Of a DNA stretch of 64,000 nt, positions 12,247-35,179 are shown one piece after another. Within the stretch, counting starts at the first letter, position 1. Every line of letters starts with the position of its first letter. Made by a program: the position numbers and the translations under genes. Source of the stretch: a virus; the IMG/VR virus record IMGVR_UViG_3300036790_000468, positions 1 through 64,000 of that record; one strand, 5' to 3'. A model generated the notes under the pieces. The model saw only the letters and a list, made by a program, of their open reading frames with translations. It did not search any database and was not told where the DNA came from.

Positions 12247-12262
12247 TCGAACATCTGTTCGA
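12247..12262. promoter_or_regulatory. LexA (SOS) box at the lysin promoter
   Basis: TCGAAC-ATCT-GTTCGA, a perfect actinobacterial consensus, abutting a minus-strand TACAAT. Confidence 0.8.
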
Positions 12263-12270
12263 ATTGTAGG

Positions 12271-13341
12271 TCACCAGCGGCGCTCGGAGACGAACCCGTT
12301 GCACGTGATAGACACGGCGTTCGCCGAAGGTGTGGCGCCGAGGACGAACTGCTCGCTCGCCGCGCTCGACACGGACACCGAGGCGGCCTGCGCCAGCGAG
12401 AAGGAGAGGAACGACATATGGTCGTAGAGCATCACGCTCACGGTCCCGCTGGTCTCGCACATGATCTCCGCCTCGACCCACCACGCCTGGTTCGTCACCG
12501 CCCCGCTGCTGTTGGGGTTCTGCGCGCCGGAGGCGACCAGCAGCGTCCCTGAGACGCCGCCCCAGTACAGCCCCAGGTTGACCGTCTGCGTGTTCGCGGT
12601 CGTCGTCAGCACGCCCCATGCGCGGAACCGGAACACCTGTCCCACCGCGAGCCCGGACGCCGGCACCGTCAGCCCCGCCGCGAGCAGGGTTGCCACCGTC
12701 ACGCCGGTGACGGTGGTCGAGCTCGTCGGGGTCACCGGCGCCCACGTGAACCCCAGGCCGCCCTGGGAGACCGGCAGCGCCGCAGTCAGGTGGGTGGCAA
12801 CGACGTGAGGGGCAGCCGCGGTGCCGCCGAGGTCGGTGCCCAGCTGCAGCGCGCCCTGGGCGCCGGCGGTGGCGGCCGGCAGCTGCCCGGCCGAGGCCGT
12901 GCCGGAGATCTGGGAGAAGGAGTAGTCGTTCGGCGCCGCGACCACCGCGCCGGTGCGCCCGAACACAGAGGAGACCGCCCCGGAGCCGGACGCGGGGTTC
13001 GCGTTCGCCGTCTCGTACCAGGTGCCCTGCGACAGGCAGTACTGCAGCAGTACCCCCTGCATCAGGGCCGTGAGCTGGATGCTCGTCGTCCCTGGCACGT
13101 TGATGACGTCGCTGCCGCCCGCGGCAATCGTTACCGCGTTGCTGCCGGTCTGGGCGATGAGCAGGACGTCCACGAGGGTCTGGTCCGGCGGAGCGGTCGG
13201 CAGCGTCGCCGTGAGCGCGCCCGAGGCGGTGGAGACGGGGTAGAACGCGGAGGTGGCACCGGCGGTGAACGACGTGGTCTGCGCCGACGCCGCCGGGACC
13301 GCGTACATGCGGTCGCTCGCCCCGTACACGGTGGCCGTCAT
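12271..13341 (-). CDS. Minor tail / fibre-like protein
   Basis: Gly/Thr/Ala-rich, VSSVFGRTGAV motif, last gene of the tail module. Confidence 0.7.
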   Translation of the reverse strand: MTATVYGASDRMYAVPAASAQTTSFTAGATSAFYPVSTASGALTATLPTAPPDQTLVDVLLIAQTGSNAVTIAAGGSDVINVPGTTSIQLTALMQGVLLQYCLSQGTWYETANANPASGSGAVSSVFGRTGAVVAAPNDYSFSQISGTASAGQLPAATAGAQGALQLGTDLGGTAAAPHVVATHLTAALPVSQGGLGFTWAPVTPTSSTTVTGVTVATLLAAGLTVPASGLAVGQVFRFRAWGVLTTTANTQTVNLGLYWGGVSGTLLVASGAQNPNSSGAVTNQAWWVEAEIMCETSGTVSVMLYDHMSFLSFSLAQAASVSVSSAASEQFVLGATPSANAVSITCNGFVSERRW

Positions 13342-13348
13342 GATCCTC

Positions 13349-13642
13349 CTAGACCGGGGTTCCGGCGACGATGTAGGTCTGGCCCACCGGGATCAGCAGC
13401 ACGGTGGCCCCCGCGGTCGGGGTGTAGCTCGAAAGGTGCTGGAGCGGGCCGATGCTCTGGCCGTTGAGTACGACGGTCGGGTCGCCGCTGACGTAGCCGG
13501 AGCTGATCGTGGCCAGGTAGGGGACCACAAAGTTGCCGGTATCCAGGACCTGGCAGCGCTGCTCGAGACGGCGCACACGCGCCACGAGGGTGCTGATGAG
13601 CTTGCCGAAGCGGTCGGCAACCGGCACCGGGAACTGGGGCAT
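13349..13642 (-). CDS. Minor tail protein
   Basis: Coiled coil plus a small beta domain (SYTPTAGATVL). Confidence 0.65.
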   Translation of the reverse strand: MPQFPVPVADRFGKLISTLVARVRRLEQRCQVLDTGNFVVPYLATISSGYVSGDPTVVLNGQSIGPLQHLSSYTPTAGATVLLIPVGQTYIVAGTPV

Positions 13643-13643
13643 C

Positions 13644-14861
13644 TCACATCACCTGCCCGATCGCGCCCTGGGAACTGGAGCCGAGCAGCGCGCCGAGAGT
13701 GACCGTGACCTTCTCGGTCTGGTTCTCCGCGGGCGGCACCAGCTCCCAGCCGGTAACGCGCCCGGTGATCTGTAGTCCCGGGGCGCCGGTCACGGGGTCC
13801 GCGGGGTCGAGCGAGGATGATGCGGCGAACGCCGCGGAGTCCCCGAGCCCGATGGTGCGCAGCAGCGGCGCGGTGCCCCCGCCGAGCACCACGCTCGGGA
13901 GCATCGTCCCGGCCGTGTACTGTCCGAGGAGGGCCTGGACGTACTGGTTGATCTGCGCCTGGGAGGTGACTCCGACCCCTGGCCAGGTCACGGCGACCTG
14001 CTGGAGCGGCAGGCCGTTGTCCAGGTCGATGTTGTCCACCCCGTAGGGCGCCCCCGAGTTGTAGGTCGCCCCGGAGCCGTTCGCGGCAGAGGTGCCCACG
14101 AGCCAGTTCGCCCCGTTCGAGCCCATCGTCGGGCGCGCGTAGTTGATCACGTTCCCGGGGAAGTTGAACGCCTGTACCGGCGGGCTCGCGTTGTACTGAC
14201 CCAGCGCCGGATAGCCCAGGCGCAGCAGCCACCCGAACGCCCCCATGGGCAGCGGCTGCGGCTCGAACGTGAACTCGAACCCGTCGGCGGTCGCCGTCCC
14301 CGTCAGGGCGTCGAGCACCTGCTGCTCGTCGGAGAACGTCCCGTAGTACGAATCACCCCCGGCCTGCAGAGTGTTACTCACGCCGAAGGTGAGAGTGTCG
14401 GTTGTCCCAGACTCGCCGCTCATGTACGACAGCCCCGCGATCTGCGCGTTGGGGCCGATCGAGGGGGAGGTGGCGTACTGGACGAGGCTGCGCGCGATGT
14501 CGAAGACGTCCGTGTTGGTGAAGCTCAGGCCACCGGTGATCAGCCGGTACTGCAGCAGCCCCTCGATCGTGACCGCGCTGAACGGCAGCTGGTTGTCCAG
14601 GATGCTCTCGTGCGGGGTGTCCAGGAGCCAGCCGCCCCACACCGGATAGCCGTCCTGCAGGATCCACAGCACCGCCTTGCGCGGAGTGAGCGCCTGGATG
14701 CTGCCCAGATCCAACGCCCGCACCCCCTGCAGCGGCAGGTGGCCCGAGGCGCGCCCGACACCGGAGAGGAGCCTGCTTGCGGAATTCACCACCAGCGGCA
14801 GCGAGTCGCCCATCACCTGCCCGGTGAGGATGTTCGTCGTGATGTATCGGTAGGTGCTCAC
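13644..14861 (-). CDS. Minor tail protein (baseplate hub/Tal, ReqiPepy6 gp37-like)
   Basis: Probable start VSTYRYITTNILTG; NFPGNVINY and LGD...RVTGW motifs. Confidence 0.75.
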   Translation of the reverse strand: MSTYRYITTNILTGQVMGDSLPLVVNSASRLLSGVGRASGHLPLQGVRALDLGSIQALTPRKAVLWILQDGYPVWGGWLLDTPHESILDNQLPFSAVTIEGLLQYRLITGGLSFTNTDVFDIARSLVQYATSPSIGPNAQIAGLSYMSGESGTTDTLTFGVSNTLQAGGDSYYGTFSDEQQVLDALTGTATADGFEFTFEPQPLPMGAFGWLLRLGYPALGQYNASPPVQAFNFPGNVINYARPTMGSNGANWLVGTSAANGSGATYNSGAPYGVDNIDLDNGLPLQQVAVTWPGVGVTSQAQINQYVQALLGQYTAGTMLPSVVLGGGTAPLLRTIGLGDSAAFAASSSLDPADPVTGAPGLQITGRVTGWELVPPAENQTEKVTVTLGALLGSSSQGAIGQVM

Positions 14862-15898
14862 GATGCCGCCGCTTTCACGATGATCCGGCCTTGGTCGAGT
14901 GCGAAGTTTCCGGCGCCCTGGTTCTGGATCTGCAGGCTGTAGGTGTAGGTGCCCGCGGCGGGGGTGGGGTCGAACGTGCTGAAACCACCGCCGTTCAACG
15001 TGCTGTTGGTGCCCGAGCAGACCGCCACAATGTCGTTGATCAGGGAGGATCCCCGGAAGATGCCTATGGTGCAGCCGGTTCCGTTCCCGGTGGATGAGGT
15101 CGAGATGTACTTGAACGAGGCCGTGATCTCCACGTTCGTGTTGCCGTCGACGGTCACGCTGGCGGAGGTGGCGGTGACCCACGTCGCGGAGGTTGCGGTC
15201 GCGTTTCCCGGTGTGCTGGCGATGGTGGCGAACGCGGCGACGGACGGCGCGACCATGGCAGTGCCGTTGAAATATTTCAGACGGTTGAGTGATACGTCCA
15301 GGACGAAGCCCTTCGGCCCGACCGAGGGGTAGAAGCCGCTGTTGAGCACCGAGACGATGCCCCCGGCCCCGGCGAGGAACGGGCGCTGGTCCGTCAGGCT
15401 TCCTGACGTCAGCGTGGTCTGGTTCGCGTTCACGAGGACGTAGCAGAGGGTGAGGCTGTTCGCCGGCAGCGTCGCGGGCGCGGGACTGGCGGCGGCCGTC
15501 CCGGTGACGATCTGCACCACCGCAGTGCTCGAGGAACTGCCGAGGTCGGTGATCGTGACCGCCACGGTGTCGATGCGCGGGTTGACCGTGTCCGCAGTGG
15601 TGCACGTCAGGGTCGCGGTGCCGTCCAGGGTCGCGCCATATGCCCCGCTGTCCGCCGCGGCACTCCCCTGGATGGCCACGCAGCCGCTCTGGACGGAGAC
15701 TGACAGGCCCGAGGTGACCGCAGCCTGCAGGGGACTGCCGGCGCCGTCGCGCACGCCGGAGCGCACGGCCAACTGGCTGCTGGAGGAGGCGCCCACGGCC
15801 GAGAGCAGCATCGAGTGCTGGGACAGGCGCATGTCCTGGGCTGCGACGGTCAGCCCGTCGCCCCAGACGAACGCGCGCATCGGTGCGCTGGTAGCCAT
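14858..15898 (-). CDS. Minor tail protein
   Basis: ADTVNPRIDTV and TDQRPF actinophage tail motifs. Confidence 0.75.
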   Translation of the reverse strand: MATSAPMRAFVWGDGLTVAAQDMRLSQHSMLLSAVGASSSSQLAVRSGVRDGAGSPLQAAVTSGLSVSVQSGCVAIQGSAAADSGAYGATLDGTATLTCTTADTVNPRIDTVAVTITDLGSSSSTAVVQIVTGTAAASPAPATLPANSLTLCYVLVNANQTTLTSGSLTDQRPFLAGAGGIVSVLNSGFYPSVGPKGFVLDVSLNRLKYFNGTAMVAPSVAAFATIASTPGNATATSATWVTATSASVTVDGNTNVEITASFKYISTSSTGNGTGCTIGIFRGSSLINDIVAVCSGTNSTLNGGGFSTFDPTPAAGTYTYSLQIQNQGAGNFALDQGRIIVKAAAS

Positions 15899-15901
15899 AG
15901 G

Positions 15902-17098
15902 TCACATCCATGCGTCGGAGTAGGTGATGGTCATGGAGCTGCCGGCATAGTCGGCGCCTGCCAGGACGATGGAGCTGGCCCCGGGTGCCAGGCGCCACCA
16001 GGCGGAAGAGACGTCCGCAGCGATGGGCTGGCCATTGATGGTGGCGACGCGGTTGAGCAGATCGACGACGAGTTGCTCGGTGGCGCTCAGGGTGAGCCCC
16101 GAGAAAGAGATGATCATTCCGCTGGTCTGGTTGTAGAGCGCCGGGCCCGTGATCGGCCCGGTGATCGTCACCAGGGGCCCGGTGCCGAAATTGCCGTTGT
16201 TCGTAGCCATGATCGACGCGGATGCGGCCTGCGCGGGCGGCGTGAGGGGCGGCGTGAGGGGCGGTGTGATCCCGAGCATCTGCCCCGCCGCCGTAGCACT
16301 CTGCGTGTACACGCTCGTGCCGTACTTGCGCGGGTCCGGCGCGATCAGACCGATCGTGAAGATGACGTCGAGCAGCGTTGGATACGACTCGTGCAGCACC
16401 CCAGAACGGCGCACCTGCATCGTCTTGGGTACCGGCTCGTTGTAGACGAACGTCGCCAGCTGGTTCGGCGGCACGCTCGCCTGCAGCAGCGCCCGGGCCG
16501 TGTCGCGCAGCGCCTGCGAAGCGGCTGCCGCGTGCACTGTCACCGTGAGCGGGCGCGGCCCGTAGTATTGCGGGGTCGCATACCCGCCGTGGTCCCCGGC
16601 GCGCTGCACCACGCCGCCCGAGGTAGGCACCCCGTCCAGACCGGTGACGGACTGCACCATCCACGCAGTGCCGTTCGCATCCACCGAACCCAGCGGCACG
16701 CGGTGCGGCCCGTAGGAGAGCGAACCGGTCCAGTACCCGACGTCGGAGGAGCCGGTGGCCGGCCCCACCCCGATGATGATGTTCTCGGTGCCGTACACCG
16801 GCGCCGAACCGGCCGTCACGGCAATCGTCCAGGTGGCCACGTACGTGCCCGGCGCGGCGCCGGACGGGATCTGCCACGCATACGCGTAGAGCCCCACCCC
16901 GCTGCGGTAGACCTGGCCGCCAGTGGGCACCGACGCCCCGACGTAGAGGAACGGGCCTGCGACATCGCTGGACCCGGTGCCGTAGGTGATGTCCAGCTGG
17001 ACGCTGGCCGGGTCGATCAGGACGCCGGAGGGCCCATCCTCGTTGTAGACCGCACACGGCAGCGTGACCGGCTGCCCCGGCAGTGCATAGATCGTCAC
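15902..17098 (-). CDS. Distal tail protein (Dit) with N-terminal extension
   Basis: Follows TMP; GPRPLTVT, LIAPDPRKY, WWRLAPG and YSDAW motifs. Confidence 0.8.
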   Translation of the reverse strand: MTIYALPGQPVTLPCAVYNEDGPSGVLIDPASVQLDITYGTGSSDVAGPFLYVGASVPTGGQVYRSGVGLYAYAWQIPSGAAPGTYVATWTIAVTAGSAPVYGTENIIIGVGPATGSSDVGYWTGSLSYGPHRVPLGSVDANGTAWMVQSVTGLDGVPTSGGVVQRAGDHGGYATPQYYGPRPLTVTVHAAAASQALRDTARALLQASVPPNQLATFVYNEPVPKTMQVRRSGVLHESYPTLLDVIFTIGLIAPDPRKYGTSVYTQSATAAGQMLGITPPLTPPLTPPAQAASASIMATNNGNFGTGPLVTITGPITGPALYNQTSGMIISFSGLTLSATEQLVVDLLNRVATINGQPIAADVSSAWWRLAPGASSIVLAGADYAGSSMTITYSDAWM

Positions 17099-20334: not shown

Positions 20335-20346
20335 GCTCTCCTCCTC

Positions 20347-22839: not shown

Positions 22840-23087
22840 TTCGCCCCCGCCTGGATGTCGTCGGCGCTCGGGTGCTCGTCCGGGTGATGCTTGCGGCATA
22901 CGGTGAACGCCGTGCCCTGCACCGGGTGGCGCCCCAGGCGCGGGCAGCGGCGCACGTGGCAGTTGTGGCGGCGCAACACCACCAGCGGCACAGCGAGGAT
23001 CGAGGCGTCACCGCCGATGCCGGACCAGAAGCCGTATACGGGCCCGGACAGGTTGTCGAGGCCGAGGAGGTGCGCGAGGGCGTTCAT
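22836..23087 (-). CDS. Small membrane protein with Cys/His cluster
   Basis: YGFWSGIG..TM..HNCHVRRCPRLGRH...CRKHHP; TGATG coupling. Confidence 0.6.
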   Translation of the reverse strand: MNALAHLLGLDNLSGPVYGFWSGIGGDASILAVPLVVLRRHNCHVRRCPRLGRHPVQGTAFTVCRKHHPDEHPSADDIQAGAK

Positions 23088-23467
23088 CAGCGCTCCCGGT
23101 AGAGCGCGGGGCGCATGTACGACTGCTCCGGCGTGTTGCCGTGGCGAGCGTGGGCGTCTACGACGCGCCCGGTGTGCGTCTCGTACTCCCGGACCCACTC
23201 TTCGCCGTGGAACCCGAGCTCGGTCGCGGCGGCGTAGGGGACGGGGCCGTCGTCGTCGGGGAAGGAGCCGATCTGCAGCTCCGGGCCGTCGCCGGTCTCG
23301 AGGACCTGGTAGGCCTCGGAGTCGCGCAGGCGACCGGTCTGGACGGGGGTGGCGGCTTGCATGTCGGCGAGGATCGCGGGGCCGAACTGCTCCTCGAGCA
23401 TGACGGCCTCGGCAGCGCGCAGCTGCTCGAGCCAGTCGGGCTCCATGACGACGGATACGCCGGCCAT
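23087..23467 (-). CDS. HK97 gp10-like tail component
   Basis: TPVQTGRLRDS, YAAATELG and YMRPAL motifs. Confidence 0.8.
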   Translation of the reverse strand: MAGVSVVMEPDWLEQLRAAEAVMLEEQFGPAILADMQAATPVQTGRLRDSEAYQVLETGDGPELQIGSFPDDDGPVPYAAATELGFHGEEWVREYETHTGRVVDAHARHGNTPEQSYMRPALYRER

Positions 23468-23570: not shown

Positions 23571-23586
23571 TCGAACGTTTGTGCGA
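23571..23586. promoter_or_regulatory. LexA box upstream of the tail operon
   Basis: TCGAAC-GTTT-GTGCGA (1 mismatch); minus-strand TACACT 8 nt downstream. Confidence 0.65.
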
Positions 23587-24854: not shown

Positions 24855-25247
24855 TCAGGCGCTGGCGGGGGTCTCAGACGCCGTGGTGGTGGAAGAGGTG
24901 TCGGAGCTCGGCGCCGAGCCCTGAGTGGTGCTCGGCGCCACCGTGGGGTCCGGCGTCGGCACCGCGGCCGGGTCGGCCGGCGCGGCCGGGGACACGACCG
25001 GCGTCGGCTGGCCGGTCGCCGGGTCCGGCAGGCCGAACGCGGCCCGCAGCTTCGCCAGGTGCGACTCGCCCCACGAGATCATCGCCGTGGCGACCTCGTC
25101 GATGTGCTGGTGCGCGGCCGCGGTGATGCCGGGCAGCGCGGTGCGGAACGCGTCGAGGTCCGCCGAGGCCTCGTCGTGGACCTCCTGCGCCGCAGCGGCC
25201 AGGTCCTTGGTCACGGTGCCCGCCAGGGCGCCGAAGTCGATCGACAT
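24855..25247 (-). CDS. Hypothetical protein
   Basis: RBS GGAGG; helical N-terminus and Pro/Thr-rich tail. Confidence 0.6.
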   Translation of the reverse strand: MSIDFGALAGTVTKDLAAAAQEVHDEASADLDAFRTALPGITAAAHQHIDEVATAMISWGESHLAKLRAAFGLPDPATGQPTPVVSPAAPADPAAVPTPDPTVAPSTTQGSAPSSDTSSTTTASETPASA

Positions 25248-25276: not shown

Positions 25277-26293
25277 TCATCGTACGCGTGTTCGAACGGT
25301 GTGCGAGGGAACGGTGCGGGTCTCGAACTTCCTTCGGCCGACGGCACGCTCGGCGTACGCCTGCACCGATTTCGGCAGCTGCCCGGCGCGCCCGTCGCGC
25401 AGGATCCGCTCCGCCGCGCGCAGCCGTGCAGCCTGCGACTCGGAGGGCAGCGAGAATCCTCGGGCGATCGAGCGCAGCGCCTCGTGCTTGAGCCGCTCGG
25501 GCCACGACATCCCCCCGACTGCGGAGCCGTTCCACACCTGCGCGATGCACCGGCAGTGCGGGTGGCGCGGCGGCCCGATCAGCGGCATCCCCGGCGGCCA
25601 CACGCTGGGGGGCGTCGTGGCGCCGAACGTCGCGAACTCGTCGAACGACTCACCCTTCATCGGGTCGACCACATCGCCCGAGAGCGCGAGGCACACCACG
25701 CATGCGTCGCGCTCGGGGACCCACACGAGCTTCTGGCCGGTGGCCTGCGCGATACGGGCCGCGGCCCGGTTGCCGGCGTCGTTGACGGCCCACTCGGCGC
25801 CGGTGGCGACGGAGCCGATCGCCTGCTGCGCGACGTTCAACGCGGTCGCGGCCGCCGTGAGGTCGCTGGAGCGCTGAAGCATCTTCGCCGACCGGTCGAC
25901 CTTCACGCGCGCGGACGCCGTCGCCGAACGCACCGCCTGCGTAACCTCGCGCGGCGCGGCGGCGACCGGGACGAACGGGTTGCCGGGCCCGAGGGTGAAG
26001 ACGGCGGTGGCGTCCATCGCGGCCCGCGCCTGGGCGAGGATCGGGGGCAGCAGCTCCCGCTCGGAGAGCAGCGGCAGCATCTCGGCCTCGAGCTGTATGG
26101 CGAGCTGCTTGGCGGCCGCGGCCTTCGCCTGGTCGCTGCGGGCCATCAGGAGCCGGCCGGTGACCTCCCGCTGGAGCTGCGCGAGGGCGATGACGAGGCG
26201 GAGGGTCGCGGCGCGCACCGCGGCCTGCTCGATCGCGAGCAGGACCTGCGCGTGCCGGTCGGTCGCGTCCCGCTGGTCCTGCGCGGTGGCCAT
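25277..26293 (-). CDS. MuF/SPP1 gp7-like minor capsid (head morphogenesis) protein
   Basis: WVPERDACVVCLALSG...PPRHPHCRC. Confidence 0.8.
   Translation of the reverse strand: MATAQDQRDATDRHAQVLLAIEQAAVRAATLRLVIALAQLQREVTGRLLMARSDQAKAAAAKQLAIQLEAEMLPLLSERELLPPILAQARAAMDATAVFTLGPGNPFVPVAAAPREVTQAVRSATASARVKVDRSAKMLQRSSDLTAAATALNVAQQAIGSVATGAEWAVNDAGNRAAARIAQATGQKLVWVPERDACVVCLALSGDVVDPMKGESFDEFATFGATTPPSVWPPGMPLIGPPRHPHCRCIAQVWNGSAVGGMSWPERLKHEALRSIARGFSLPSESQAARLRAAERILRDGRAGQLPKSVQAYAERAVGRRKFETRTVPSHTVRTRVR
25280..25295. promoter_or_regulatory. LexA box
   Basis: TCGTAC-GCGT-GTTCGA (1 mismatch), 33 bp upstream of ATG 25247. Confidence 0.6.
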
Positions 26294-27040: not shown

Positions 27041-27415
27041 CTACCGCTTCCGGTTGGCACGGGGGACCTGGGGGGTGGCGTCGTCGGGTGCGTCGCCAGC
27101 CACGGCTACACCCGGCGACGCCACGACCGTGGTCGGCTCGCTCTCGTCGTCGTCCTCATCGTCGTCGCCGAGCTCGGCCAACTGCGCGAGCAGCCGCTCG
27201 CGCTTCGCCTTCTTCGACTCCTTCAGGTCCGCGCCCGCCAGCGCCTCCTCCTGCTCCGGGGAGAGGATCAGGGAGCGCACCGACTCCGGCGCGGGGGGCG
27301 GGCACGGCTGGAGCATCCCCTTCTTGACCTGGTTCGCCAGGTCCTCGTGCAGCGGGAGCGTGAAGCCGTGGACGCCGCCGGTGTCGCGGTGCCGGTACCA
27401 GGTGAGCTCGGCCAT
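27041..27415 (-). CDS. Hypothetical protein
   Basis: RBS GAGAGG; acidic linker. Confidence 0.6.
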   Translation of the reverse strand: MAELTWYRHRDTGGVHGFTLPLHEDLANQVKKGMLQPCPPPAPESVRSLILSPEQEEALAGADLKESKKAKRERLLAQLAELGDDDEDDDESEPTTVVASPGVAVAGDAPDDATPQVPRANRKR

Positions 27416-27439
27416 GAAGGGGGTCCTCTCGGAAGGGGG

Positions 27440-27904: not shown

Positions 27905-27906
27905 GG

Positions 27907-28806
27907 TCAGATTCCCGTCGGACGCTCGACGTAGGCCACAGCAAGGGCCTCGGGCCTGGTGAGTTTGGCGCCGTAGACGTGCAGGCCTCGGACGAGGTCG
28001 CCGAAGTCGGTCTGCGCGCGCAGGGCCTCGTTCTCGGCGACCTGGTCGCCGAAGGTGATCGCGGAGTTGTGGCCGGCCTGGATGGCCCACACCCCGGTTC
28101 CGGGGCCGCCGGCGACGGTCTGCACCGTGTTGTTGGACTCGAGGATGACGAAGCCCGCCGCGCGGCCGACCGCGCCGTTCTCGAAGACGACGCCTTCCGC
28201 GCCGTTGGTGCCGGGGAAGGCGATGAACGCCTGTGTCTGGGCGAGCAGGCCCGTCGCCCATGGCGGCAACACCACGTAGCGTCCCTGCTTCGGGACGTTG
28301 TTCTGCGAGAGCAGCACGCCGAGGGGGATGAGGACCTTCAGGTACAGGTCGGCGACGGCGCTCGAGGAGTAGACGCCCGGGGTGAGCGGGGCGCCGGAGG
28401 AGCCGAGCACGTTCGCCGGGGCCACGCCGGTGTACATGGCGGCGATGAACTGGTCCATCTGGTCGGCGAGCTTGTAGTTCGCGCGGTCCTCGAAGAACCC
28501 CTGGAAGTCGCCCATCTGCTGGCGCCGGTCGACGTCGTTGATGATCGTCGCCCAGTACTTGGCCTGGTCGATCTGGAGGGACTGGCCGGCGTCGAGGATC
28601 TGCTGGTAGTTGAGGCCAGCATTGATCACGTAGTTGGAGATGACGGGGTCGCCCATGGACGTGATGTGCAGGACGTCGCCGAGCCGGGCGATCTCGCCCT
28701 CGTAGTCCCGGTTGATCACGTACTGGGAGCCGAAGACGAGGGTCTTCTCCAGGGCCGCGAGCAGGACCTTCGACCATACTTGCGGCTTGTAGTGCAGAAC
28801 AGTCAT
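27907..28806 (-). CDS. Major capsid protein (HK97 fold, P22-coat-like)
   Basis: YKPQVWS, NRDYEGEI, GRAAGF and VRGLHVYGAKLTRPEAL motifs. Confidence 0.9.
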   Translation of the reverse strand: MTVLHYKPQVWSKVLLAALEKTLVFGSQYVINRDYEGEIARLGDVLHITSMGDPVISNYVINAGLNYQQILDAGQSLQIDQAKYWATIINDVDRRQQMGDFQGFFEDRANYKLADQMDQFIAAMYTGVAPANVLGSSGAPLTPGVYSSSAVADLYLKVLIPLGVLLSQNNVPKQGRYVVLPPWATGLLAQTQAFIAFPGTNGAEGVVFENGAVGRAAGFVILESNNTVQTVAGGPGTGVWAIQAGHNSAITFGDQVAENEALRAQTDFGDLVRGLHVYGAKLTRPEALAVAYVERPTGI

Positions 28807-28904
28807 CTGCTCGCCTTCACGGACGGGGGGTGACAAGGGATGCCGTTTCGGCGATCCCGCGTCGTCCCGTTCCGGGGCGGCAGGCGGGTCCTACGGTGGT
28901 GCGG

Positions 28905-29552
28905 TCAGCTACCGAGGTAGCTCTTGAGCAGGCCGTCCCTGTGCGCCTTGGCGACCTGCGCCGGCGTCATCCGGTCGACGTCCGCGGCGGTGAGCTGGCG
29001 TGCGGTGCCCGGTGCGGCGTCGAATCCGCCGGCTGTCGAGGCCTGCGGGGGTGCCGGTGCGGCCGGTGCGGGGGCTGCGGTGGCGTAGCGCGGGTTGGCG
29101 GCGACCGCGGCCTTCACGGCCTCGGCCAGCGCGCCCGTGTCTGACGGGTCGATCTTCTCCAGCGCGGCCAGGAACGCCCGGGAGTCGAGCAGCGCGGCCG
29201 GGTCGGCTCCCGCGGCGTGCGCGGCGAGGAGTACCGCGCGCTCACGGGCGAGCATCGCCTTCTCGACCTTCGCCGCGGCCAGTTCGCGGGCGATGGCCTC
29301 AGGGTCGGCTTTGGTGTCGACGGGCAGTCCGAGCTCGGCCGCGATCTTCCTGATCGCGGCGTCGCGCTTGGCCCCGTCCTCGGCGGACTGGGCGTTGGCC
29401 TTCGCCTTGCCTTCCCAGTCGCGGGCGTGGCCCTTCCACTTGTCGCGGTCGGTCTGGAGCGCGGCGAGCTGTGCGGCGAGGTCCGTTTCGGGCGTCGCCG
29501 TGGGCACCGGCGCTGGCGGAGCGCCCGGGTCGGTGGTGGCTGGGTCGGTCAC
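28905..29552 (-). CDS. Capsid scaffolding protein
   Basis: DKWKGHARDWE coiled coil and ALLDSRAF; precedes MCP. Confidence 0.8.
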   Translation of the reverse strand: MTDPATTDPGAPPAPVPTATPETDLAAQLAALQTDRDKWKGHARDWEGKAKANAQSAEDGAKRDAAIRKIAAELGLPVDTKADPEAIARELAAAKVEKAMLARERAVLLAAHAAGADPAALLDSRAFLAALEKIDPSDTGALAEAVKAAVAANPRYATAAPAPAAPAPPQASTAGGFDAAPGTARQLTAADVDRMTPAQVAKAHRDGLLKSYLGS

Positions 29553-29615
29553 GTTCTTCTCCCGTTGCGGGGGTAGGCGCCAGGTCGCCGTTGCGGCGGC
29601 CGGCTGCCGTGATTA

Positions 29616-29631
29616 TCGCACACACGTTCGA
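29616..29631. promoter_or_regulatory. LexA box upstream of scaffold/capsid
   Basis: TCGCAC-ACAC-GTTCGA (1 mismatch), overlapping a minus-strand GATAAT. Confidence 0.7.
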
Positions 29632-29648
29632 TTCGAGGCAGTCGCCGG

Positions 29649-29957
29649 TCAGTAGCCGGGTGCGGCGTCCATCTGCGCGTCCGGATACGTCGAGTAGCCC
29701 GGGGACGCGTCGAGCACCTCCGGCGACGCGGCCGTCTTGCCGCCGGCCATGGGTGAGATGTTCGACCCGATGCCCTGCGAGCAGTCGTACGGCCCGGCGT
29801 GCCCGGGGACGTTGGAGGGGACGTGCTTGCCTGCGGCCGGCTGGCCGCCGTGGCGCATCGGCGTCGGCTGCTGGCGTACCTGAGACTTGCCCGGCACGGT
29901 GACAGGCTGCTTCGGAGCCGCGGCCGCCTTCGGGGCGCCCTTCTTGGGTGCGGTCAT
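29649..29957 (-). CDS. Hypothetical protein
   Basis: ATGA overlap with the portal stop. Confidence 0.55.
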   Translation of the reverse strand: MTAPKKGAPKAAAAPKQPVTVPGKSQVRQQPTPMRHGGQPAAGKHVPSNVPGHAGPYDCSQGIGSNISPMAGGKTAASPEVLDASPGYSTYPDAQMDAAPGY

Positions 29958-31654
29958 ATCGAGAGCTCCCTACTCGGGTCGGACGCGACGGACGTGTCCG
30001 AGGTGATCTGGACGTCTCCTGCGATCTCGTCGATCTCCTGGCCGATCGTGGCCTCGGAGTCCTGCGGGCCCTGGAGCATGACGCGGGCGCGCCCGAGGAT
30101 GTCGAACGCGGCCTCGTCGCGGATCCGGTCGAGCTCCTCGGTGACCTGGTCGTCCGTCCAGTCCGGGTGCAGCAGCTGGATCATGGTCTGCTTGGACGCG
30201 GCCTGCGCGGTGTTCATCGCGACGATGGTGGTCGAGGTCTCGGAGAGGGACGGCAGGATCATCTCCGGCCACATGATCAGCGGCCGGGCCGGGGTGATCG
30301 GCCGCTTGAACACGGACTTCTCGATCCACTGCAGCGAGTAGAGGGCGTCGCGCAGGCCGGGGCGCCAGTACTGCTGCTTGCGCTTCCCGGTCATCAGGGT
30401 GCGCCGGTCGCGGTCCTCGACCTCGGTCGCGGTCATCGCCACGTTCGTCGACTCCCCGAAGATCTGCCCGGAGTACCCGGCGGAGCGCAGGGTGTCGCCG
30501 AGGATCTGCTTCATCGTGCTCTGATGGTCTTCCCAGCGGATCGCGAACTGGTTCGCGGTGATCGCACTGTCCGCGGTGCCCGACAGCATCTTGAGCGGCA
30601 CGAACACCTCCTTCTCGATGTCCGCGAGCGCGCCCTTCCCGGGCCCGAGGTCGTTGAGGTAGTCCGGGGGTACCATCAGGCGCATCTTGCCGAGCCGGAT
30701 ATCGCGCATCCAGCTCGAGAAAGTTTCGTCGAGGGAGTCCATCAGCCCCTCGATCCCGGCGAAATCGGACCGGCCGAGAGCGGCGGCGTGCCCGAGGTGG
30801 CGCCAGTACCGGTTCGGGCGCATGTTCGGGATGTAGGTGACCGTGGATGCGTCCGGGGCGATGTCCGGGAAGCGGATCGCGTTGTCCGAGTCGAGCGTCG
30901 CGAACAGCGGCTGCAGGTCCGGGTAGTCGCGCAGTCCGACGACGGACCCGAGGGTCTGCTGGTCGCCGACGTACACGGAGTGGTAGACGCTGTTGGTGCG
31001 GATGTCGTGGTGCTCGAGGTGGCGGTGGACCTCGTCGCCGTCGTCGACCAGGACGCGCCAGAACGTCACCTCGGTCAGTTTCCCGGCGCGGAACACCGGG
31101 ACGGCGGCGTCGGCGTGCACGAGCTCGATCCACGGCCGGTCCGACAGGGCCTGGTCGTAGACGGTGCGCAGGTACAGGCCGCCGAGGCCGGCGCACAGGT
31201 CCGCTCCCTCGTGGAGGGTCGAGTGCAGGTCGTCGTCGAACCGCTCCTCACACCAGTCCGCGACCGCGGTGTCGCCGTCTTCGGCCTCGAACTTCGGGCG
31301 TTTGGCGAACAGCAGGTCGGCGGACATGGTGGTGATGTCGGTGGCGAGCGGTATGTGGACCTTGGTGCGCTTCTCGCCAGCCGAGGGTGTGGTGCCCCAG
31401 AACGTGCGGTCGACGGAGCCGAGGAGGCCGCCGCGGTAGGAGCCGGGGCGCGGTTGGCGGATGGACTGTTCGCCGGTGGTGCGGAAGAAGTTCCTGCCGA
31501 CCTGGCTGTTGGCACCGAGGTTCTGGTAGGCCCAGGCGAGTTGGTCGGGTTTGCCGGAGTACCAGGCGGACCATAGGCGCTGGTCGTGGGCGACGGGGTC
31601 CCAGTGCCAGGGTGGCCATGGCTGGTCTGCTGCGTCTGGTCCGGGGAGTGCCAC
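29954..31654 (-). CDS. Portal protein (SPP1 gp6/A118-like)
   Basis: HIPLATDIT..SADLLF, GRSDF, LDETFSSWMRDIRLG, TATEV and LHPDW motifs. Confidence 0.92.
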   Translation of the reverse strand: MALPGPDAADQPWPPWHWDPVAHDQRLWSAWYSGKPDQLAWAYQNLGANSQVGRNFFRTTGEQSIRQPRPGSYRGGLLGSVDRTFWGTTPSAGEKRTKVHIPLATDITTMSADLLFAKRPKFEAEDGDTAVADWCEERFDDDLHSTLHEGADLCAGLGGLYLRTVYDQALSDRPWIELVHADAAVPVFRAGKLTEVTFWRVLVDDGDEVHRHLEHHDIRTNSVYHSVYVGDQQTLGSVVGLRDYPDLQPLFATLDSDNAIRFPDIAPDASTVTYIPNMRPNRYWRHLGHAAALGRSDFAGIEGLMDSLDETFSSWMRDIRLGKMRLMVPPDYLNDLGPGKGALADIEKEVFVPLKMLSGTADSAITANQFAIRWEDHQSTMKQILGDTLRSAGYSGQIFGESTNVAMTATEVEDRDRRTLMTGKRKQQYWRPGLRDALYSLQWIEKSVFKRPITPARPLIMWPEMILPSLSETSTTIVAMNTAQAASKQTMIQLLHPDWTDDQVTEELDRIRDEAAFDILGRARVMLQGPQDSEATIGQEIDEIAGDVQITSDTSVASDPSRELSI

Positions 31655-31750
31655 GGGGTGCCCTTTCGGCGGGGAAGCGGCGGTGTGGTTGCCGTTTCGG
31701 CGCCGTGCGGGCCCTTTGCGGGTGGTCGCAGGGTGGTGCTGGTCAGCAGG

Positions 31751-32194
31751 TTACTGCTTGGTGGGTCCGTTGACGCCCTGGAACTGCAGGCGCGTGTCGG
31801 TGAGGTACTTAGGCTCGTCGAGGAACCGCGTCTTCGTGGCCGGCCGCCCTGAGTCGTCGAGCGCGGTCGCGAGCTCGGCTTCGGTGACGGTGACCTCGAA
31901 GGCAGCGCTGTCGCGCAGGGCTCCGGTCACGATGGGCGCTGCCTCCACCATCCGAGCGACGAGCGCCTGCTCCAGCGCCTTCCCCCATATCTCGGGCTTG
32001 TAGAACAACCCATGCCGAGGTTCCGCGTCCGGGTCGCGCGGGGGCGGTGGCACGTACTGCGGCCACGTGACGACCGCGTGATGGTCGCCGTCGTGGCCCT
32101 TCGGCAGGTCGCATTCGACGGTGAGCCCTTCGTAGGGGTCGCCTTCGAGGTCGCCGCAGAGCTCGGGCTCAGCCACGACGCGGCCTCTTCCCAC
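31751..32194 (-). CDS. Hypothetical protein
   Basis: C..C..GHDGDH motif followed by YKPEIW and APIVTGALRDS. Confidence 0.55.
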   Translation of the reverse strand: MGRGRVVAEPELCGDLEGDPYEGLTVECDLPKGHDGDHHAVVTWPQYVPPPPRDPDAEPRHGLFYKPEIWGKALEQALVARMVEAAPIVTGALRDSAAFEVTVTEAELATALDDSGRPATKTRFLDEPKYLTDTRLQFQGVNGPTKQ

Positions 32195-32331
32195 GGTGGA
32201 TGAGCACCACGAGCATCCCCGTCCACCAGCACAGCGTGAAGCCGCACAAGCCGTGTCCGGGATTCCAGGCGCGGCCGATCGGCAGCCAGCGGCGTTGCGT
32301 CGGCTTGACGCGGATCACCTCGAGGTACATG

Positions 32332-32691
32332 TTAGGCCGCTGCTGTGATGGCGCGCTGCCCGGTGGTCAGTTCCGCGTCCTCGACGATCTCAGCGTCCAC
32401 CACGTCATCGGTGGGGTGTGCCGCGTCCCATGCCGCCAGGTCGTCCCCGAAGCGCTTGATCTCCTCGACGACGCTCATGGGCACGTCGGTACAAACGATG
32501 TGGGTGAACGCGAGCGGTGAGCGCCACGTCGTGAGCGTCATATGGGTGGGGATGGCCGCGAGCTCTACCTCGCCGATCTCGATCTGCTGCTCGCCTGTGC
32601 GTGCGATCAGGATGCCGATGATCTGCTGGAGCGCTTGGATGCGCTCGTAGGGATCGGGTGCGTTGAGGAGGCTGGCCACGTCACCCGCCAC
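32332..32691 (-). CDS. Hypothetical protein
   Basis: Coupled operon. Confidence 0.55.
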   Translation of the reverse strand: MAGDVASLLNAPDPYERIQALQQIIGILIARTGEQQIEIGEVELAAIPTHMTLTTWRSPLAFTHIVCTDVPMSVVEEIKRFGDDLAAWDAAHPTDDVVDAEIVEDAELTTGQRAITAAA

Positions 32692-33085
32692 CCATCTGTG
32701 GGGGTGTGTTGCCGTTGCCGAGGATGATGCCGCTCGCCGTGCGCCCCGGGATCACCGGCCCGTTCTGCAGCTGCAGATGGCAGCGTGCGAGGGAGCGGCC
32801 TTCGACCACGAACTCGGCCGGAGTGATGGCCGGAAGCAGCTCGCCGGGGATGCCCTGCTGCTCGGCCTGGATCCGCTGGAGCACGCAGCCGAAGCAGGAG
32901 AGGCCCGCGACACCCGGTTCGGCGGTGACGGCCGCGCCCATGGAGTCGACGAACGCGCGGATCTGGTCGAGCGACGCGGCGAGCGTGACGTAGGGGCGTT
33001 CGCTGGTGGAGGCGGCGGTGACGGCGTTGCGCAGCGCGGTGGAGATCTCGGCGAGCGCGCCGGTGAACTCGGCCGGGGTCGTCAC
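32681..33085 (-). CDS. Hypothetical protein (CxxC...CH)
   Basis: GTGA coupling to the upstream gene. Confidence 0.55.
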   Translation of the reverse strand: MTTPAEFTGALAEISTALRNAVTAASTSERPYVTLAASLDQIRAFVDSMGAAVTAEPGVAGLSCFGCVLQRIQAEQQGIPGELLPAITPAEFVVEGRSLARCHLQLQNGPVIPGRTASGIILGNGNTPPQMGGG

Positions 33086-33345
33086 GAGCGCTCCACCTCC
33101 CGCGCACTGACCTGGCCGCCCCGTTCGATCGCTTCCACCAGATGGGAGCGGATCATCAGGACGGTGCCCTCGACGTCGTCGAAGATGTAGCAGCCTTCTG
33201 ACTCGCGGAAGGCCGCCGCCTCGACGGTGCGGCACTCGCGACCGAGGGTCTGCGGCTCGGAGAGGGTGCCGTCAGGCATCAGCCACGGCTTCGGGGGCGC
33301 GAGGTCGATGCGGTACCGGTAGACCGGGATGCGCGCAGTGGACAT
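33082..33345 (-). CDS. Hypothetical protein, probably leaderless
   Basis: ATG lies 3 nt from a LexA box. Confidence 0.55.
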   Translation of the reverse strand: MSTARIPVYRYRIDLAPPKPWLMPDGTLSEPQTLGRECRTVEAAAFRESEGCYIFDDVEGTVLMIRSHLVEAIERGGQVSAREVERS

Positions 33346-33348
33346 GAT

Positions 33349-33364
33349 TCGAACCTTTGTTCGG
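33349..33364. promoter_or_regulatory. LexA box
   Basis: TCGAAC-CTTT-GTTCGG (1 mismatch) in the short gap after terL. Confidence 0.7.
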
Positions 33365-33377
33365 GTGGCTGGTGGAT

Positions 33378-34640
33378 TCACGATACCGCCGCGAGCGGAC
33401 GGCGCAGAGTGCCTTCCCACGCGTTCCTGGTCGTGTACAGGCCGTACCTGAGGGCGTCCGCGCCGTGGTCGTTGACCTTCAGCGGCTTGTCCTCGCCGAG
33501 CTTCTGCGCGGCCGCGTCCCACGAGTAGCCGGCCAGCTCCCCGATCAGGTGCGGGCACGCGCGGGAGATCCGCAGCTGGTCGTTGGACAGCAGCGTCGCC
33601 ACCGTGCGGATCCCGTCGAGCACGTCGTTGAGCGCGGCCCACGACGCCATCCCGTCGCGCTGCAGCTGCGCCCGGAACGAGGCCGCGGAGGGGTCGACGA
33701 CGATGTACTCGACTTCTGGGCCCGTGTACTCGGTGCCGGGGATGGGGATCGTCGGCAGCCATGCGCGCAGGGCGGCGGAGTACTCGGCGTCGGTCATCTG
33801 CCGGTGCGCGGTCCTCGAGTCGTGCCGGTACTCGGCGAGGACGTACAGGCGCTTGTCGACGCCGACGCCGAGCAGGACGGCGTGGCAGGGGTTGCTGGTG
33901 CCGTAGTCGACGCCGACGCACAGCCAGCGTTCGATGAACGGCAGATCCTGCGGCTCGAGGGTGTGGACGTCGAGGTCGAACATGTCGTAGATCGCGCCCT
34001 CCGCCAGGACCCACAGGCCGTCTACGAACCGTTTGCGCCACAGGCCCGTGTATTGGCGGCGCAGGTAGGCGACGTAGGAGGGGTCGAGGAAGGGGTTGTC
34101 GTCGAGGGTGAAATGCCAGGATCGGATGTCGGGGTCTGGGCGGTCGAGCCAGTCGCGTTTGAGCCAGTGGTTCGGGCCGTCCGGATTCGTGGTCGCGTAC
34201 AACTTCGCGCCGCGCACGGACATGCGGGCCACGAGCTGCTGGAACGTGCTCTCGGGCAAGATCGTCGCTTCGTCGACGAGCGCGCCGGCCACCGTCATGC
34301 CACGGACTTTCGCCTCGGACTGGATGTCGTTGGCACCGAGGACGTGGACCTGGCGCCCGAGGATGGTGGCGGAGTTGGCGCCGTCGGTGTAGGCGACGGT
34401 CTTGGCCAGCGCCCCGTAGAGCAGAGGGTCTTTCAGGACGTTGATGACGTTGCGGGCGATGGTTTCTTTGGTGCGGCCCATCATGACGAGTTCGCCGGAG
34501 GGCGGGGCGTGGCGGATGTGGTTGAACCAGGAGAAGTTCGCGCCCACGGATTTGCCGGAGCGGACGGCGCCTTCCCAGATGTTGATCCGCGCGCTGGCCT
34601 CGTCGATCGAGAGGGTCTGCTTGTCGGACAGGCCGCTCAC
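33378..34640 (-). CDS. terL: Terminase large subunit (PBSX-type)
   Basis: GAVRSGKS Walker A, LVDE Walker B, TTNP, VDYG, DPSA and DHGADALRY. Confidence 0.96.
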   Translation of the reverse strand: MSGLSDKQTLSIDEASARINIWEGAVRSGKSVGANFSWFNHIRHAPPSGELVMMGRTKETIARNVINVLKDPLLYGALAKTVAYTDGANSATILGRQVHVLGANDIQSEAKVRGMTVAGALVDEATILPESTFQQLVARMSVRGAKLYATTNPDGPNHWLKRDWLDRPDPDIRSWHFTLDDNPFLDPSYVAYLRRQYTGLWRKRFVDGLWVLAEGAIYDMFDLDVHTLEPQDLPFIERWLCVGVDYGTSNPCHAVLLGVGVDKRLYVLAEYRHDSRTAHRQMTDAEYSAALRAWLPTIPIPGTEYTGPEVEYIVVDPSAASFRAQLQRDGMASWAALNDVLDGIRTVATLLSNDQLRISRACPHLIGELAGYSWDAAAQKLGEDKPLKVNDHGADALRYGLYTTRNAWEGTLRRPLAAVS

Positions 34641-35131
34641 GTAGTGTCGCGGATCTCGGCCGCGCGTTCGGCGACGGCGTCCATGAACCCGTCGAGGACC
34701 GAGACGGCGTCGGACAGGCCGCCGTCGGAGTCCTGCGCGACCAGGCGCAGGTGCGTCGCCATGAGGGACGAGAGGGCGCCGGAGAACTGGCGCATCTCCC
34801 CGGCCGGCGGGAGGGGGTGGGTGCGATGCCGGTATTCGCCGTCCTTGCCGAACCAGCCGAAGCTCAAGTATTCGCTGCCCATCCGGTCGGCTAGTTGGTC
34901 GACGATGGTCAGGAGGCGCTCGCTGATCGCGGCCCGGCGTGCCGCGGCGTCCAGCTGGTGGGCTTGGACGGCCGCGGCCGTCTGTGTGCGCTCGAACGAG
35001 CCGGGGCGCGCGTATTTGTGCACAGTGGAGGGGGAAACGTGCAGTTCGCGGGCGATCGAGGAGAGGGATCGGCCGTCAGCGGCGAGGTGCCGGATGGTCT
35101 CGATCTTCTTCGCGCTGAGCGCGCTGGGCAT
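34637..35131 (-). CDS. terS: Terminase small subunit (N-terminal HTH)
   Basis: SLSSIARELHVSPSTVHKYA HTH, directly upstream of terL. Confidence 0.8.
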   Translation of the reverse strand: MPSALSAKKIETIRHLAADGRSLSSIARELHVSPSTVHKYARPGSFERTQTAAAVQAHQLDAAARRAAISERLLTIVDQLADRMGSEYLSFGWFGKDGEYRHRTHPLPPAGEMRQFSGALSSLMATHLRLVAQDSDGGLSDAVSVLDGFMDAVAERAAEIRDTT

Positions 35132-35163
35132 CCGGCCTCCCGTGCGTCCAGGCTGGCGAAGGT

Positions 35164-35179
35164 TCGAACATTTGATCGA
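35164..35179. promoter_or_regulatory. LexA box at the terS (late) promoter
   Basis: TCGAAC-ATTT-GATCGA (1 mismatch), overlapping a minus-strand TAGAAT -10. Confidence 0.7.

Follow-up and report, generated by a model that had tools for sequence, protein, structure and literature searches.

We analysed a 64,000-nucleotide stretch of viral DNA (the window; positions 1 to 64,000 of the IMG/VR virus record IMGVR_UViG_3300036790_000468, which is 127,504 bases long). Its ~6.8-50 kb portion is best explained as a prophage, a temperate siphovirus of a high-GC actinobacterium. Six near-consensus copies of the actinobacterial LexA operator (boxes) were found at the late-gene junctions of this phage. They exceed chance expectation, are conserved in position in related phages and overlap -10-like hexamers, and no conserved phage-encoded protein that could bind them was found. 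Host LexA therefore probably binds these boxes and represses the late and lysis promoters. A first-pass annotation of the sequence had proposed such a distributed LexA lock on the packaging, head, tail and lysis operons. The motif, its conservation and its overlap with the -10 hexamers support that proposal, and LexA binding and SOS inducibility are what we infer from them.

The window was searched with the pattern TCGAACNNNNGTTCGA (TCGAAC-N4-GTTCGA), allowing at most one mismatch, and 100 dinucleotide-preserving shuffles served as the background. Seven sites were found compared to 0.15 expected, and none of the 100 shuffles reached seven. At two or fewer mismatches the window has 12 sites (2.51 expected), and the strict LexA form TCGAACNNNNGNNCGA gave seven match rows (0.38 expected). 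Six of the seven sites lie in the late region, and the scan reproduced all of the coordinates and mismatch counts originally reported for them, with no mismatch at 12247 and one each at 23571, 25280, 29616, 33349 and 35164. Five of these six boxes fit TCGAAC-N4-GNNCGA exactly, and the remaining one deviates in its final base alone. The first-pass annotation had found no comparable intergenic site elsewhere in the window. It overlooked the seventh site, at 6373, which is located at the 3' end of an open reading frame (ORF) to the left of the integrase gene and is not intergenic. Outside the window, the record has one additional site, a perfect one at contig position 106842. A position weight matrix (PWM) built only from the boxes of the related phages placed all six late boxes within the top eight 16-mers of the whole record. 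The box at 6373 scored 17.1, lower than five of the late boxes and slightly above the box at 33349 (16.5), and the early/immunity region (36-50 kb) was without a box in the PWM scan of the record. The comparison with a shuffled background, which had been suggested as a check, thus came out in favour of the boxes.

The motif had been recognised as the actinobacterial LexA consensus, and it matches the published operators. TCGAAC(N4)GTTCGA is the LexA consensus of Mycobacterium tuberculosis as determined by mutagenesis, and the 4.4-Mb genome of that organism has only 24 such sites when no more than one mismatch is allowed (PMC3381160). In Streptomyces venezuelae, MEME analysis of 175 LexA peaks from chromatin immunoprecipitation sequencing (ChIP-seq) gave tCGAAC-N4-GNNCGa, and binding was confirmed by surface plasmon resonance (PMC9380542). 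We collected 36 distinct boxes from the window phage and its relatives and oriented each with the better half-site first. Three were perfect, 29 had a single mismatch and four had two. The 29 single mismatches were found at positions 12/13 (21 boxes), 15 (five) and 16 (three); G11, C14 and the whole of the better half-site had none. The share of positions 12/13 was 72%, compared to 33% under uniform scatter over the six half-site positions. The four double-mismatch boxes are not independent evidence on this point because they were admitted only if both mismatches were at 12/13. As far as these boxes tell, their variation falls on the degenerate positions (NN) of the Streptomyces LexA ChIP motif. 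The lexA gene of the Actinomycetota metagenome-assembled genome (MAG) G001, which served as a positive control, has three such boxes upstream.

The six late boxes are located at minus-strand gene junctions, 3-103 nt upstream of the start codons of terS, a small gene after terL, the scaffold gene, a gene for a 130-aa protein, the tail-completion gene and the lysin gene (Table 1). PHROG and Pfam searches upheld the late-gene assignments made earlier (terS-like with a helix-turn-helix (HTH), terL, portal, scaffold, head, tail and lysin, all on the minus strand). The description of each box as lying just upstream of a late gene was right in outline and required correction in detail. Five of the six boxes are intergenic; the box at 25280 covers the last five codons of a 390-aa gene. 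The box at 33349, which had been assigned to the post-terL genes and the portal, does precede the small post-terL gene, but no box is found upstream of the portal gene in the window phage, where several relatives have one. The boxes at 25280 and 23571, which had been ascribed to a tail operon, instead precede neck or tail-completion genes and do not belong to one tail operon.

Read on the gene strand, as are all hexamers and box sides below, the boxes are closely associated with -10-like hexamers, each having one within 8 nt that relatives conserve. At terS, CGTAGAA is followed by TCGATCAAATGTTCGA, such that the hexamer TAGAAT (35184->35179) overlaps the first base of box 1, and the ATG is 32 nt downstream. 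Box 2 starts ~15 nt past the terL stop codon and spans the Shine-Dalgarno position of the 87-aa gene, whose ATG comes 3 nt after the box end; the box follows, by ~15-20 nt, a TANNNT hexamer that overlaps or adjoins the terL stop. Box 3 runs into TAAT to give TGCGATAAT, an extended -10 type with the hexamer GATAAT (29617->29612). Box 4 spans the end of the 390-aa gene up to its TGA, with TACGAT (25284->25279) overlapping the box end and the next ATG 32 nt downstream. Box 5 has TACACT (23562->23557) 8 nt downstream. Box 6 is abutted by TACAAT (12268->12263), and GAAGGAG and the lysin ATG are found within the next 13 nt; the lysis arrangement reads CCTACAAT, TCGAACAGATGTTCGA and TGAAGGAGTGCCGATG in succession. 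The four hexamers originally described as touching or flanking boxes (TAGAAT, GATAAT, TACACT and TACAAT) are therefore present, and the TACGAT at 25280 is a fifth.

Of 40 distinct contexts, 21 have a TANNNT between -14 and +26 relative to the start of the box, compared to 2.45% of random positions in the same sequences, and six more contexts, of the scaffold class, have GATAAT with TGC in front. The hexamer is kept within each position class: TACACT, TAGAAT or TACAAT immediately ahead of the terS box, G-TA(C/A/G)(C/T)CT immediately behind the portal box, and TAC(A/T)CTGATC 8 nt behind the tail-completion box. Relative to the -10, the box is located downstream at terS and lysis and upstream at portal and tail completion, and at the scaffold and 130-aa genes it lies on the -10 itself. 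A varying offset between operator and -10 is usual for repressors and unusual for activators, which need a fixed geometry. The arrangement is thus of the repressor type. In L039, L040, L041 and L042, a GC-rich terminator-like hairpin is located directly upstream of the terS -10 and box, suggesting that terS opens a new transcription unit.

Other repeats were observed close to these promoters. Directly upstream of the terS -10 and box are two tandem 16-nt direct repeats (GCGGTTGTCGGTGGCT / GCCGTTGTCGGGGGCT; 35192-35223), bordering an 800-bp stretch (35180-35998) without a convincing gene. These repeats may be a packaging (cos/pac) or TerS-binding region. A GGTGATCACC-type palindrome is conserved 15-25 nt downstream of the scaffold box in L039 (~15925-15950), L042 (~9545-9565) and L098 (~11985-12005), and might form a hairpin in the leader or serve as another operator; at the equivalent place the window has a different GC-rich repeat.

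Relatives of the window phage were located through a TerL search of IMG/VR (56 loci) and then through a portal-alignment search (L094-L109). The clade comprises nine phage types: the window phage, L038, G403 (L039/L094, with L040 near-identical), G404 (L096), G405 (L098), G406 (L099/L100), G407 (L041/L042/L095/L102), L097 and L101. Three of them, G403, G404 and G405, are represented by complete genomes, which are 40-42 kb long and have terminal repeats. Boxes were found in all eight other types (identity of at least 59% in TerL or 51% in the portal), mostly at matching junctions, and the conservation that had been named as a check on the boxes is thus present. Among the 56 TerL-related loci, all 18 boxes were in the five nearest (L038-L042, TerL 60-68% identical) and none were in the other 51. 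Similarly, the nine loci L094-L102 (portal at least 51% identical) all have boxes, and the more distant L103-L109 have one box over seven loci. Single-protein portal searches returned distant phages only, with no box in 37 loci, and searches seeded with the lysin and Dit led to other phage lineages without a box before the lysin gene. Non-clade loci, 105 in number and 1,546,250 bases in length, have two boxes. Five whole records have 6, 4, 5, 6 and 4 sites and no occurrence of the reversed pattern in any. An exact IMG/VR scan for the box followed by TAAT (TCGAACNNNNGTGCGATAAT) returned nine stretches, of which six belong to the clade and three are without homologues of the window phage proteins.

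At the thresholds applied, the terS junction is boxed in eight of the nine types (not in L097), usually as TACACT plus the box. The post-terL junction is boxed in seven types (not in L097 or L101) and has a tandem box in G403. The scaffold junction is also boxed in seven, with TGCGATAAT identical in five types and a box plus TACTCT in L097. A portal box is present in five types, at no more than one mismatch in G403, G404, G405 and G406 and at two mismatches in L038. The end of the 390-aa gene is boxed in the window phage and G403 (L039 20638, identical arrangement), and the tail-completion junction in the window phage and G407 (L042 14925, similar layout with TACTCT). The lysis cassette is boxed in all five phages whose sequence covers the region (window, G403, G404, G405 and G406). 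The window lysin is 62% identical to the product of the gene following the box in G403 and G405. In G404, the gene behind the lysis box encodes a clear GH25 lysin (2e-13) that had no match to the window lysin in our comparison, so the lysis box appears to be retained though the lysin gene may differ. Proteins at the boxed junctions are 40-68% identical between phages. When the regions upstream of terS and scaffold were aligned, the columns were on average 56-57% identical, and 13 of 16 and 10 of 22 invariant columns, respectively, fell within the box. Judged by these alignments, the boxes are invariant islands within diverged intergenic DNA and are under selection.

Boxes were also observed in the replication module of some relatives (L038 2366, L094 3413 and L098 3797); the one in L038 precedes a D5_N primase gene. 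A UvrD-like helicase gene of G403 and G405 contains a conserved CCGAACGCCCGTTCGA.

We examined which phage-encoded regulators might bind the boxes. The observation that neither repressor of the window phage shows an S24 domain was extended to the whole record, where a six-frame search gave no Peptidase_S24 or LexA_DNA_bind match at E<=1, and LexA_DNA_bind was found in none of the three complete relatives. The LuxR and WhiB proteins had been named as possible alternative binders. The GerE domain of the LuxR protein was above the cut-off in the window phage only and in none of the three complete relatives, whose weak matches correspond to the terS HTH. The WhiB domain was likewise found in the window phage and in none of the three. 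Neither protein is therefore conserved alongside the boxes, in keeping with the LexA interpretation. The two ORFs (38.4-39.3 kb) overlap in different frames on the minus strand (window 38374-39387), with matches at 38877-39110 for WhiB and 38443-38604 for GerE/LuxR. Of the three complete relatives, G403 and G405 gave weak matches (E=1e-4) to the HTH_3 protein encoded at 48742-49332 and G404 gave none, and this protein was also set aside.

Of the regulators, only the GntR/HutC-family protein was found in each of the four complete genomes. It is ~59% identical overall, with 10/28 and 13/28 identities (~36-46%) in the recognition-helix stretch (ANATAAK versus SRTAYE and ERTAYD). Between its gene and the divergent HATPase_c_2 gene is a 36-bp palindrome (CAGCTATCTAGAGAGC / GCTCTCTAGATAGCTG). 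At the matching place, G404 and G405 have paired palindromes with TGTACA cores (L140 1563-1595; L141 1076-1102). The TCTAGA palindrome is the probable operator of GntR/HutC itself, and the protein was rejected as the box binder since it has palindromes of its own that diverge along with its recognition helix, whereas the LexA-type boxes are constant. Co-divergence of GntR and its sites next to unchanged TCGAAC boxes is as expected if the boxes are read by a host factor common to all of the hosts. GntR/HutC has the appearance of a heteroimmune phage regulator and, with its UTRA domain, may be metabolite-sensing.

In the reading we favour, the late region is divided into at least six transcription units: terS-terL, the post-terL small genes, scaffold-capsid, two neck/tail-completion units and lysis. 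Each appears to have a host-type promoter (TANNNT or extended -10) overlapped by a near-consensus LexA operator. In the lysogen, LexA dimers would block RNA polymerase at all of these promoters; at the terL junction LexA may act as a roadblock and could stop either initiation or read-through. Upon DNA damage, RecA* would promote self-cleavage of LexA, freeing the packaging, head, neck/tail and lysis units together. GntR/HutC and the early-region HTH_3 protein probably operate the early switch, so that LexA would be a second, independent input. In lytic infection, LexA might conceivably be removed through SOS triggered by way of the YqaJ exonuclease or by titration on replicating genomes. A fuller scheme would have the clade's late genes on host-type promoters without a phage activator, each clamped by LexA. 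The GntR/HutC switch would have its private operators, two signals would be needed, and LexA titration or phage-triggered SOS would serve as the early-to-late timer. We put this scheme forward tentatively and consider it rather unlikely as a whole.

Several points weigh against LexA control of the late promoters. The set of boxes varies: the window phage is without a portal box, and L097 and L101 have one box each, in 15.6 kb and 6.4 kb, respectively. The box at 25280 is coding, and its conservation in G403 could be partly protein-driven. The LexA consensus was taken from M. tuberculosis and S. venezuelae and not from the phage's own host. A scan for E. coli-type sigma-70 -35/-10 pairs found none in the late region, as expected for high-GC actinobacteria, so the promoters rest on -10-like hexamers only; a terminator consensus scan was uninformative in this high-GC DNA. 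LexA control of the late promoters does not by itself account for late expression in a lytic infection of an undamaged cell, or for induction of the early genes. Finally, a small phage protein with a LexA-like fold invisible to Pfam, like gp6 of phage GIL01, might be present.

The last point leads to the possibility that the boxes are bound by a phage-encoded protein, a stoperator-like repressor or late regulator such as the terS HTH protein, the 87-aa or 102-aa proteins or an undetected LexA-like fold. Operators repeated across a phage genome are usually bound by phage repressors, as in the stoperators of cluster A mycobacteriophages. The boxes are restricted to one phage clade, and several small clade-conserved proteins are without a family assignment. 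In GIL01, moreover, the cryptic LexA homologue gp6 acts at a late promoter (PMC6182141). However, the 12 specified bases, their spacing and the tolerated variation all fit host LexA, which would be a coincidence for an unrelated protein, and the variable -10 offset speaks against an activator. LuxR, WhiB and HTH_3 are not co-conserved with the boxes, GntR has its own diverging operators, LexA_DNA_bind was found neither in the record nor in the three complete relatives, and the early/immunity promoters, where a repressor would be expected to act, are without boxes. We regard a phage-encoded binder as improbable. That the matches are non-functional, arising by chance or as coding or compositional by-products, is effectively refuted. 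The boxes at 25280, 6373 and 106842 are in or at the ends of ORFs, and TCGA-rich words are common in high-GC DNA. Against this stand the shuffles, none of which reaches the observed count, the intergenic location of five of the six boxes and the lack of the reversed pattern in five records. Boxes are also kept at homologous junctions despite the divergence of the adjacent proteins, and other phage loci have only two boxes in 1.55 Mb.

Alternatively, LexA may bind the boxes, with their chief role being copy-number timing or LexA sequestration. Six to eight high-affinity sites per genome, multiplied by replication, would titrate the limited LexA pool, the late promoters would turn on after replication, and host SOS genes would be derepressed as a by-product. 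Such titration would account for late expression in lytic infection without DNA damage, and an early YqaJ-type exonuclease could also produce an SOS signal. No late activator was recognised in the clade, and the phage boxes, with zero or one mismatch, are closer to the perfect palindrome than most of the validated S. venezuelae sites (Table 1 in PMC9380542). The idea is purely inferential and is compatible with the lock, as both need LexA at identical sites. We consider it unlikely as the chief role, although a little less so than a phage-encoded binder. Repression of the late and lysis promoters by host LexA remains the reading we favour.

Temperate phages of the textbook type have one SOS sensing point, either repressor cleavage or a LexA-controlled antirepressor, and express their late genes from one or a few promoters with a phage activator or antiterminator. 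Direct LexA control of a lysis gene, as proposed here, is found in colicin operons, in which SOS boxes control the toxin and lysis genes and lysis is tied to severe DNA damage. Colicin operons differ in being plasmid bacteriocin systems with a single promoter each and no virion assembly genes. In cluster A mycobacteriophages, the phage's own repressor (L5 gp71) binds stoperators, which are 13-14 bp long and asymmetric, point in the direction of transcription and number 20-30 per genome, in both early and late regions. Like the boxes, they are one operator repeated many times in short intergenic gaps, and they silence long operons in the lysogen. In contrast, the clade has symmetric operators of the host LexA type at four to eight per genome, nearly all in the late half and most overlapping a -10. 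The boxes are palindromic, with the better half-site on either side, and the sole regulator shared by the complete genomes is GntR with operators of its own, not an immunity repressor co-conserved with the boxes as their binder. In the LexA-repressed antirepressor circuits of coliphage 186 (Tum), N15 (AntC) and the Gifsy phages, as proposed here, the SOS signal is passed on by host LexA and not by self-cleavage of a phage repressor. Those circuits place a single LexA-controlled gene atop a cascade, whereas the prophage showed no antirepressor box and has its sites on the effector genes. LexA-controlled phage antirepressors have been described as a general principle (PMC3381160).

In GIL01, a betatectivirus of Bacillus thuringiensis, LexA with gp7 represses P1 and the late promoter P3; P3 has tandem boxes and is activated by the LexA homologue gp6 (PMC6182141, PMC4551915). 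GIL01 thus has host LexA boxes on phage promoters, including a late virion/lysis promoter, that are released by damage, an arrangement suggested for the present phage by sequence alone. Late-promoter boxes are seen here at terS, scaffold and lysis, and tandem boxes are found after terL in G403. GIL01 differs in being a 15-kb linear plasmid prophage with three promoters, no dedicated repressor, LexA on its early promoters and a need for both gp7 and gp6. The clade instead consists of integrating siphoviruses of 40-42 kb, with four to eight boxes over separate late units, candidate repressors of their own (GntR/HutC, HTH_3) and no LexA homologue detected by Pfam. The GIL01 combination of no own repressor and boxed early promoters is not found in the window phage, whose early promoters are without a box. 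In S. venezuelae, LexA ChIP peaks are located upstream of prophage genes, one of which, listed as 'phage tail fiber protein', shows 526-fold induction with mitomycin C (Table 1 in PMC9380542). There, an actinobacterial LexA was bound in vivo upstream of prophage structural genes, a direct precedent for the arrangement proposed here, and these genes are the targets with the strongest mitomycin induction (190- to 526-fold; PMC9380542). The sites listed differ in being 123-182 bp upstream and in having weak right halves (TCGAACACCGGCGC, TCGAACACAAGGCC), and the prophage is not analysed in that paper (PMC9380542). A scan of actinobacterial tectiviruses for LexA sites was negative (PMC6950372), and Samy of S. 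ambofaciens (PMC11302927) and CyranoPS of Corynebacterium glutamicum (bioRxiv 10.64898/2026.10.29.762952) were reported to be SOS-independent. Our literature search, which had most subscription journals outside its scope, found no report of multiple LexA operators on late or structural units of a tailed phage. LexA-wired phage promoters are known; the case proposed here is a new form of them in that it is distributed over the structural and lysis genes of temperate siphoviruses and conserved across a clade.

Table 1. Boxes, genes and other features of the window, with positions in the window and the basis of each assignment.
Feature	Position	Strand	Sequence, match or remark
Box 1, terS promoter	35164..35179		TCGAACATTTGATCGA; 1 mismatch
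Box 2, between terL stop and 87-aa gene	33349..33364		TCGAACCTTTGTTCGG; 1 mismatch
Box 3, scaffold/capsid promoter	29616..29631		TCGAACGTGTGTGCGA (gene strand); 1 mismatch
Box 4, end of 390-aa gene, upstream of 130-aa gene	25280..25295		TCGAACACGCGTACGA (gene strand); 1 mismatch
Box 5, upstream of tail-completion gene	23571..23586		TCGAACGTTTGTGCGA; 1 mismatch
Box 6, lysis promoter	12247..12262		TCGAACATCTGTTCGA; perfect
Seventh box	6373..6388		TCGAACGCGCGCTCGA; GC-rich spacer; in 3' end of HTH_3 ORF (5838-6416, +); status uncertain
terS-like small terminase, N-terminal HTH	34637..35131	-	phrog_5536 6e-30; HTH_38/HTH_7; relatives' homologues upstream of terL
Large terminase (terL)	33378..34640	-	phrog_2 2e-50
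87-aa gene after terL	33082..33345	-	no Pfam or PHROG match; relatives' homologues 28-37% identical
Portal	29954..31654	-	phrog_533 3e-93
Head scaffolding protein	28905..29552	-	phrog_15186 1e-24, phrog_2592
Major head protein	27907..28836	-	phrog_267 3e-55
130-aa gene downstream of box 4	24855..25247	-	ORF; translation without Pfam match
Tail completion / neck protein	23087..23467	-	phrog_5 2e-5; relatives' homologues 52-61% identical
Endolysin, GH25-like	11544..12233	-	Glyco_hydro_25 9e-4, under curated cut-off; weak
Palindrome upstream of GntR gene	9138..9173		perfect 16+4+16, TCTAGA cores; sole occurrence in window
GntR/HutC-family regulator (GntR + UTRA)	8352..9101	-	Pfam; in 4/4 complete genomes
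Serine integrase, probable prophage end	6826..8271	-	phrog_95 3e-75; Resolvase domain

Genes were called by GC3 and annotated through the PHROG and Pfam searches. The late genes are arranged in the order terS, terL, small genes, portal, scaffold, major head, head-tail adaptor, 390-aa, 130-aa, tail completion, major tail protein, tape measure protein, Dit, minor tail proteins and GH25-like lysin, followed by the GntR/HutC regulator and the serine integrase. The lysis-GntR-serine integrase order is common to the window and G404. The integrase is of the serine type in these two phages and of the tyrosine type in G403 and G405, and the integrases in the complete relatives indicate that the clade is temperate. 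The early genes include those for a YqaJ exonuclease (44333-46210), a VRR-NUC protein and a WDGH protein. At the right prophage edge, a 477-aa ORF (50129-51562) has Phage_int_SAM_3 (N-terminal) as its sole match, and the Phage_integrase catalytic domain was not found in a six-frame search of the record; the ORF could encode either a degenerate or a divergent tyrosine recombinase.

An actinobacterial host is suggested by the 70% GC content, the relatives of TerL and the WhiB gene. The nearest cultured TerL proteins are those of Streptomyces phages such as SV1 and Raleigh, at ~52% identity, and megablast of the 24-kb late region against cultured phages gave no DNA-level match. A single sequencing run is listed for the window phage DNA, from a soil metagenome that is probably its source, and the same listing gave no RNA run. 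Among 401 sampled genomes of the class of MAG G001 there was no clade member and no lysogen host genome, the best match being G001 itself (577 bits).

The seventh box is to the left of the serine integrase gene and therefore probably outside the window prophage. The HTH_3 ORF that contains it has as neighbours a gene of the Bro-N/ANT antirepressor-like kind (4675-5736) and a Rad52-like gene (1080-2240), and a second, truncated phage element probably has its edge here. The perfect box at contig 106842-106857 (TCGAACACCTGTTCGA; L112 ~2842) is located inside a short ORF, ~55 nt before the ATG of a 199-aa ORF without a Pfam match, and may be a genuine LexA site that belongs to a different element of the record. 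At least one further phage is located on the contig between 52 and 127 kb (L110-L112), where a T4-type terminase (contig 85437-86981), very large ORFs (1260 and 1457 aa) and glycosyltransferase genes (~97.7-101.9 kb) are encoded. This second phage is without a box since the only other sites with at most one mismatch on the record are those at 6373 and 106842, and no LexA-type box was found between 36 and 106 kb of the record. Copies of TCGCTCACATGTTCGA, single or in tandem, are located 2.5-3 kb downstream of the lysin gene in phages that have the lysin in common with the window phage but are otherwise unrelated (L121 6490 and 6512; L119 7271). These may be conventional LexA sites at an immunity or antirepressor region.

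If host LexA does control the late promoters, the clade would represent a second, independent architecture by which tailed phages couple virion production and lysis to DNA damage. Such control would also explain why prophage structural genes head the list of S. venezuelae LexA targets. Several near-perfect SOS boxes at late-gene junctions would then provide a sequence rule for predicting SOS-dependent lysis in actinobacterial prophages, relevant to Streptomyces fermentation strains and to induction-based virome studies. The boxed promoters would, in addition, offer compact, tightly LexA-controlled promoters for actinobacterial genetics.

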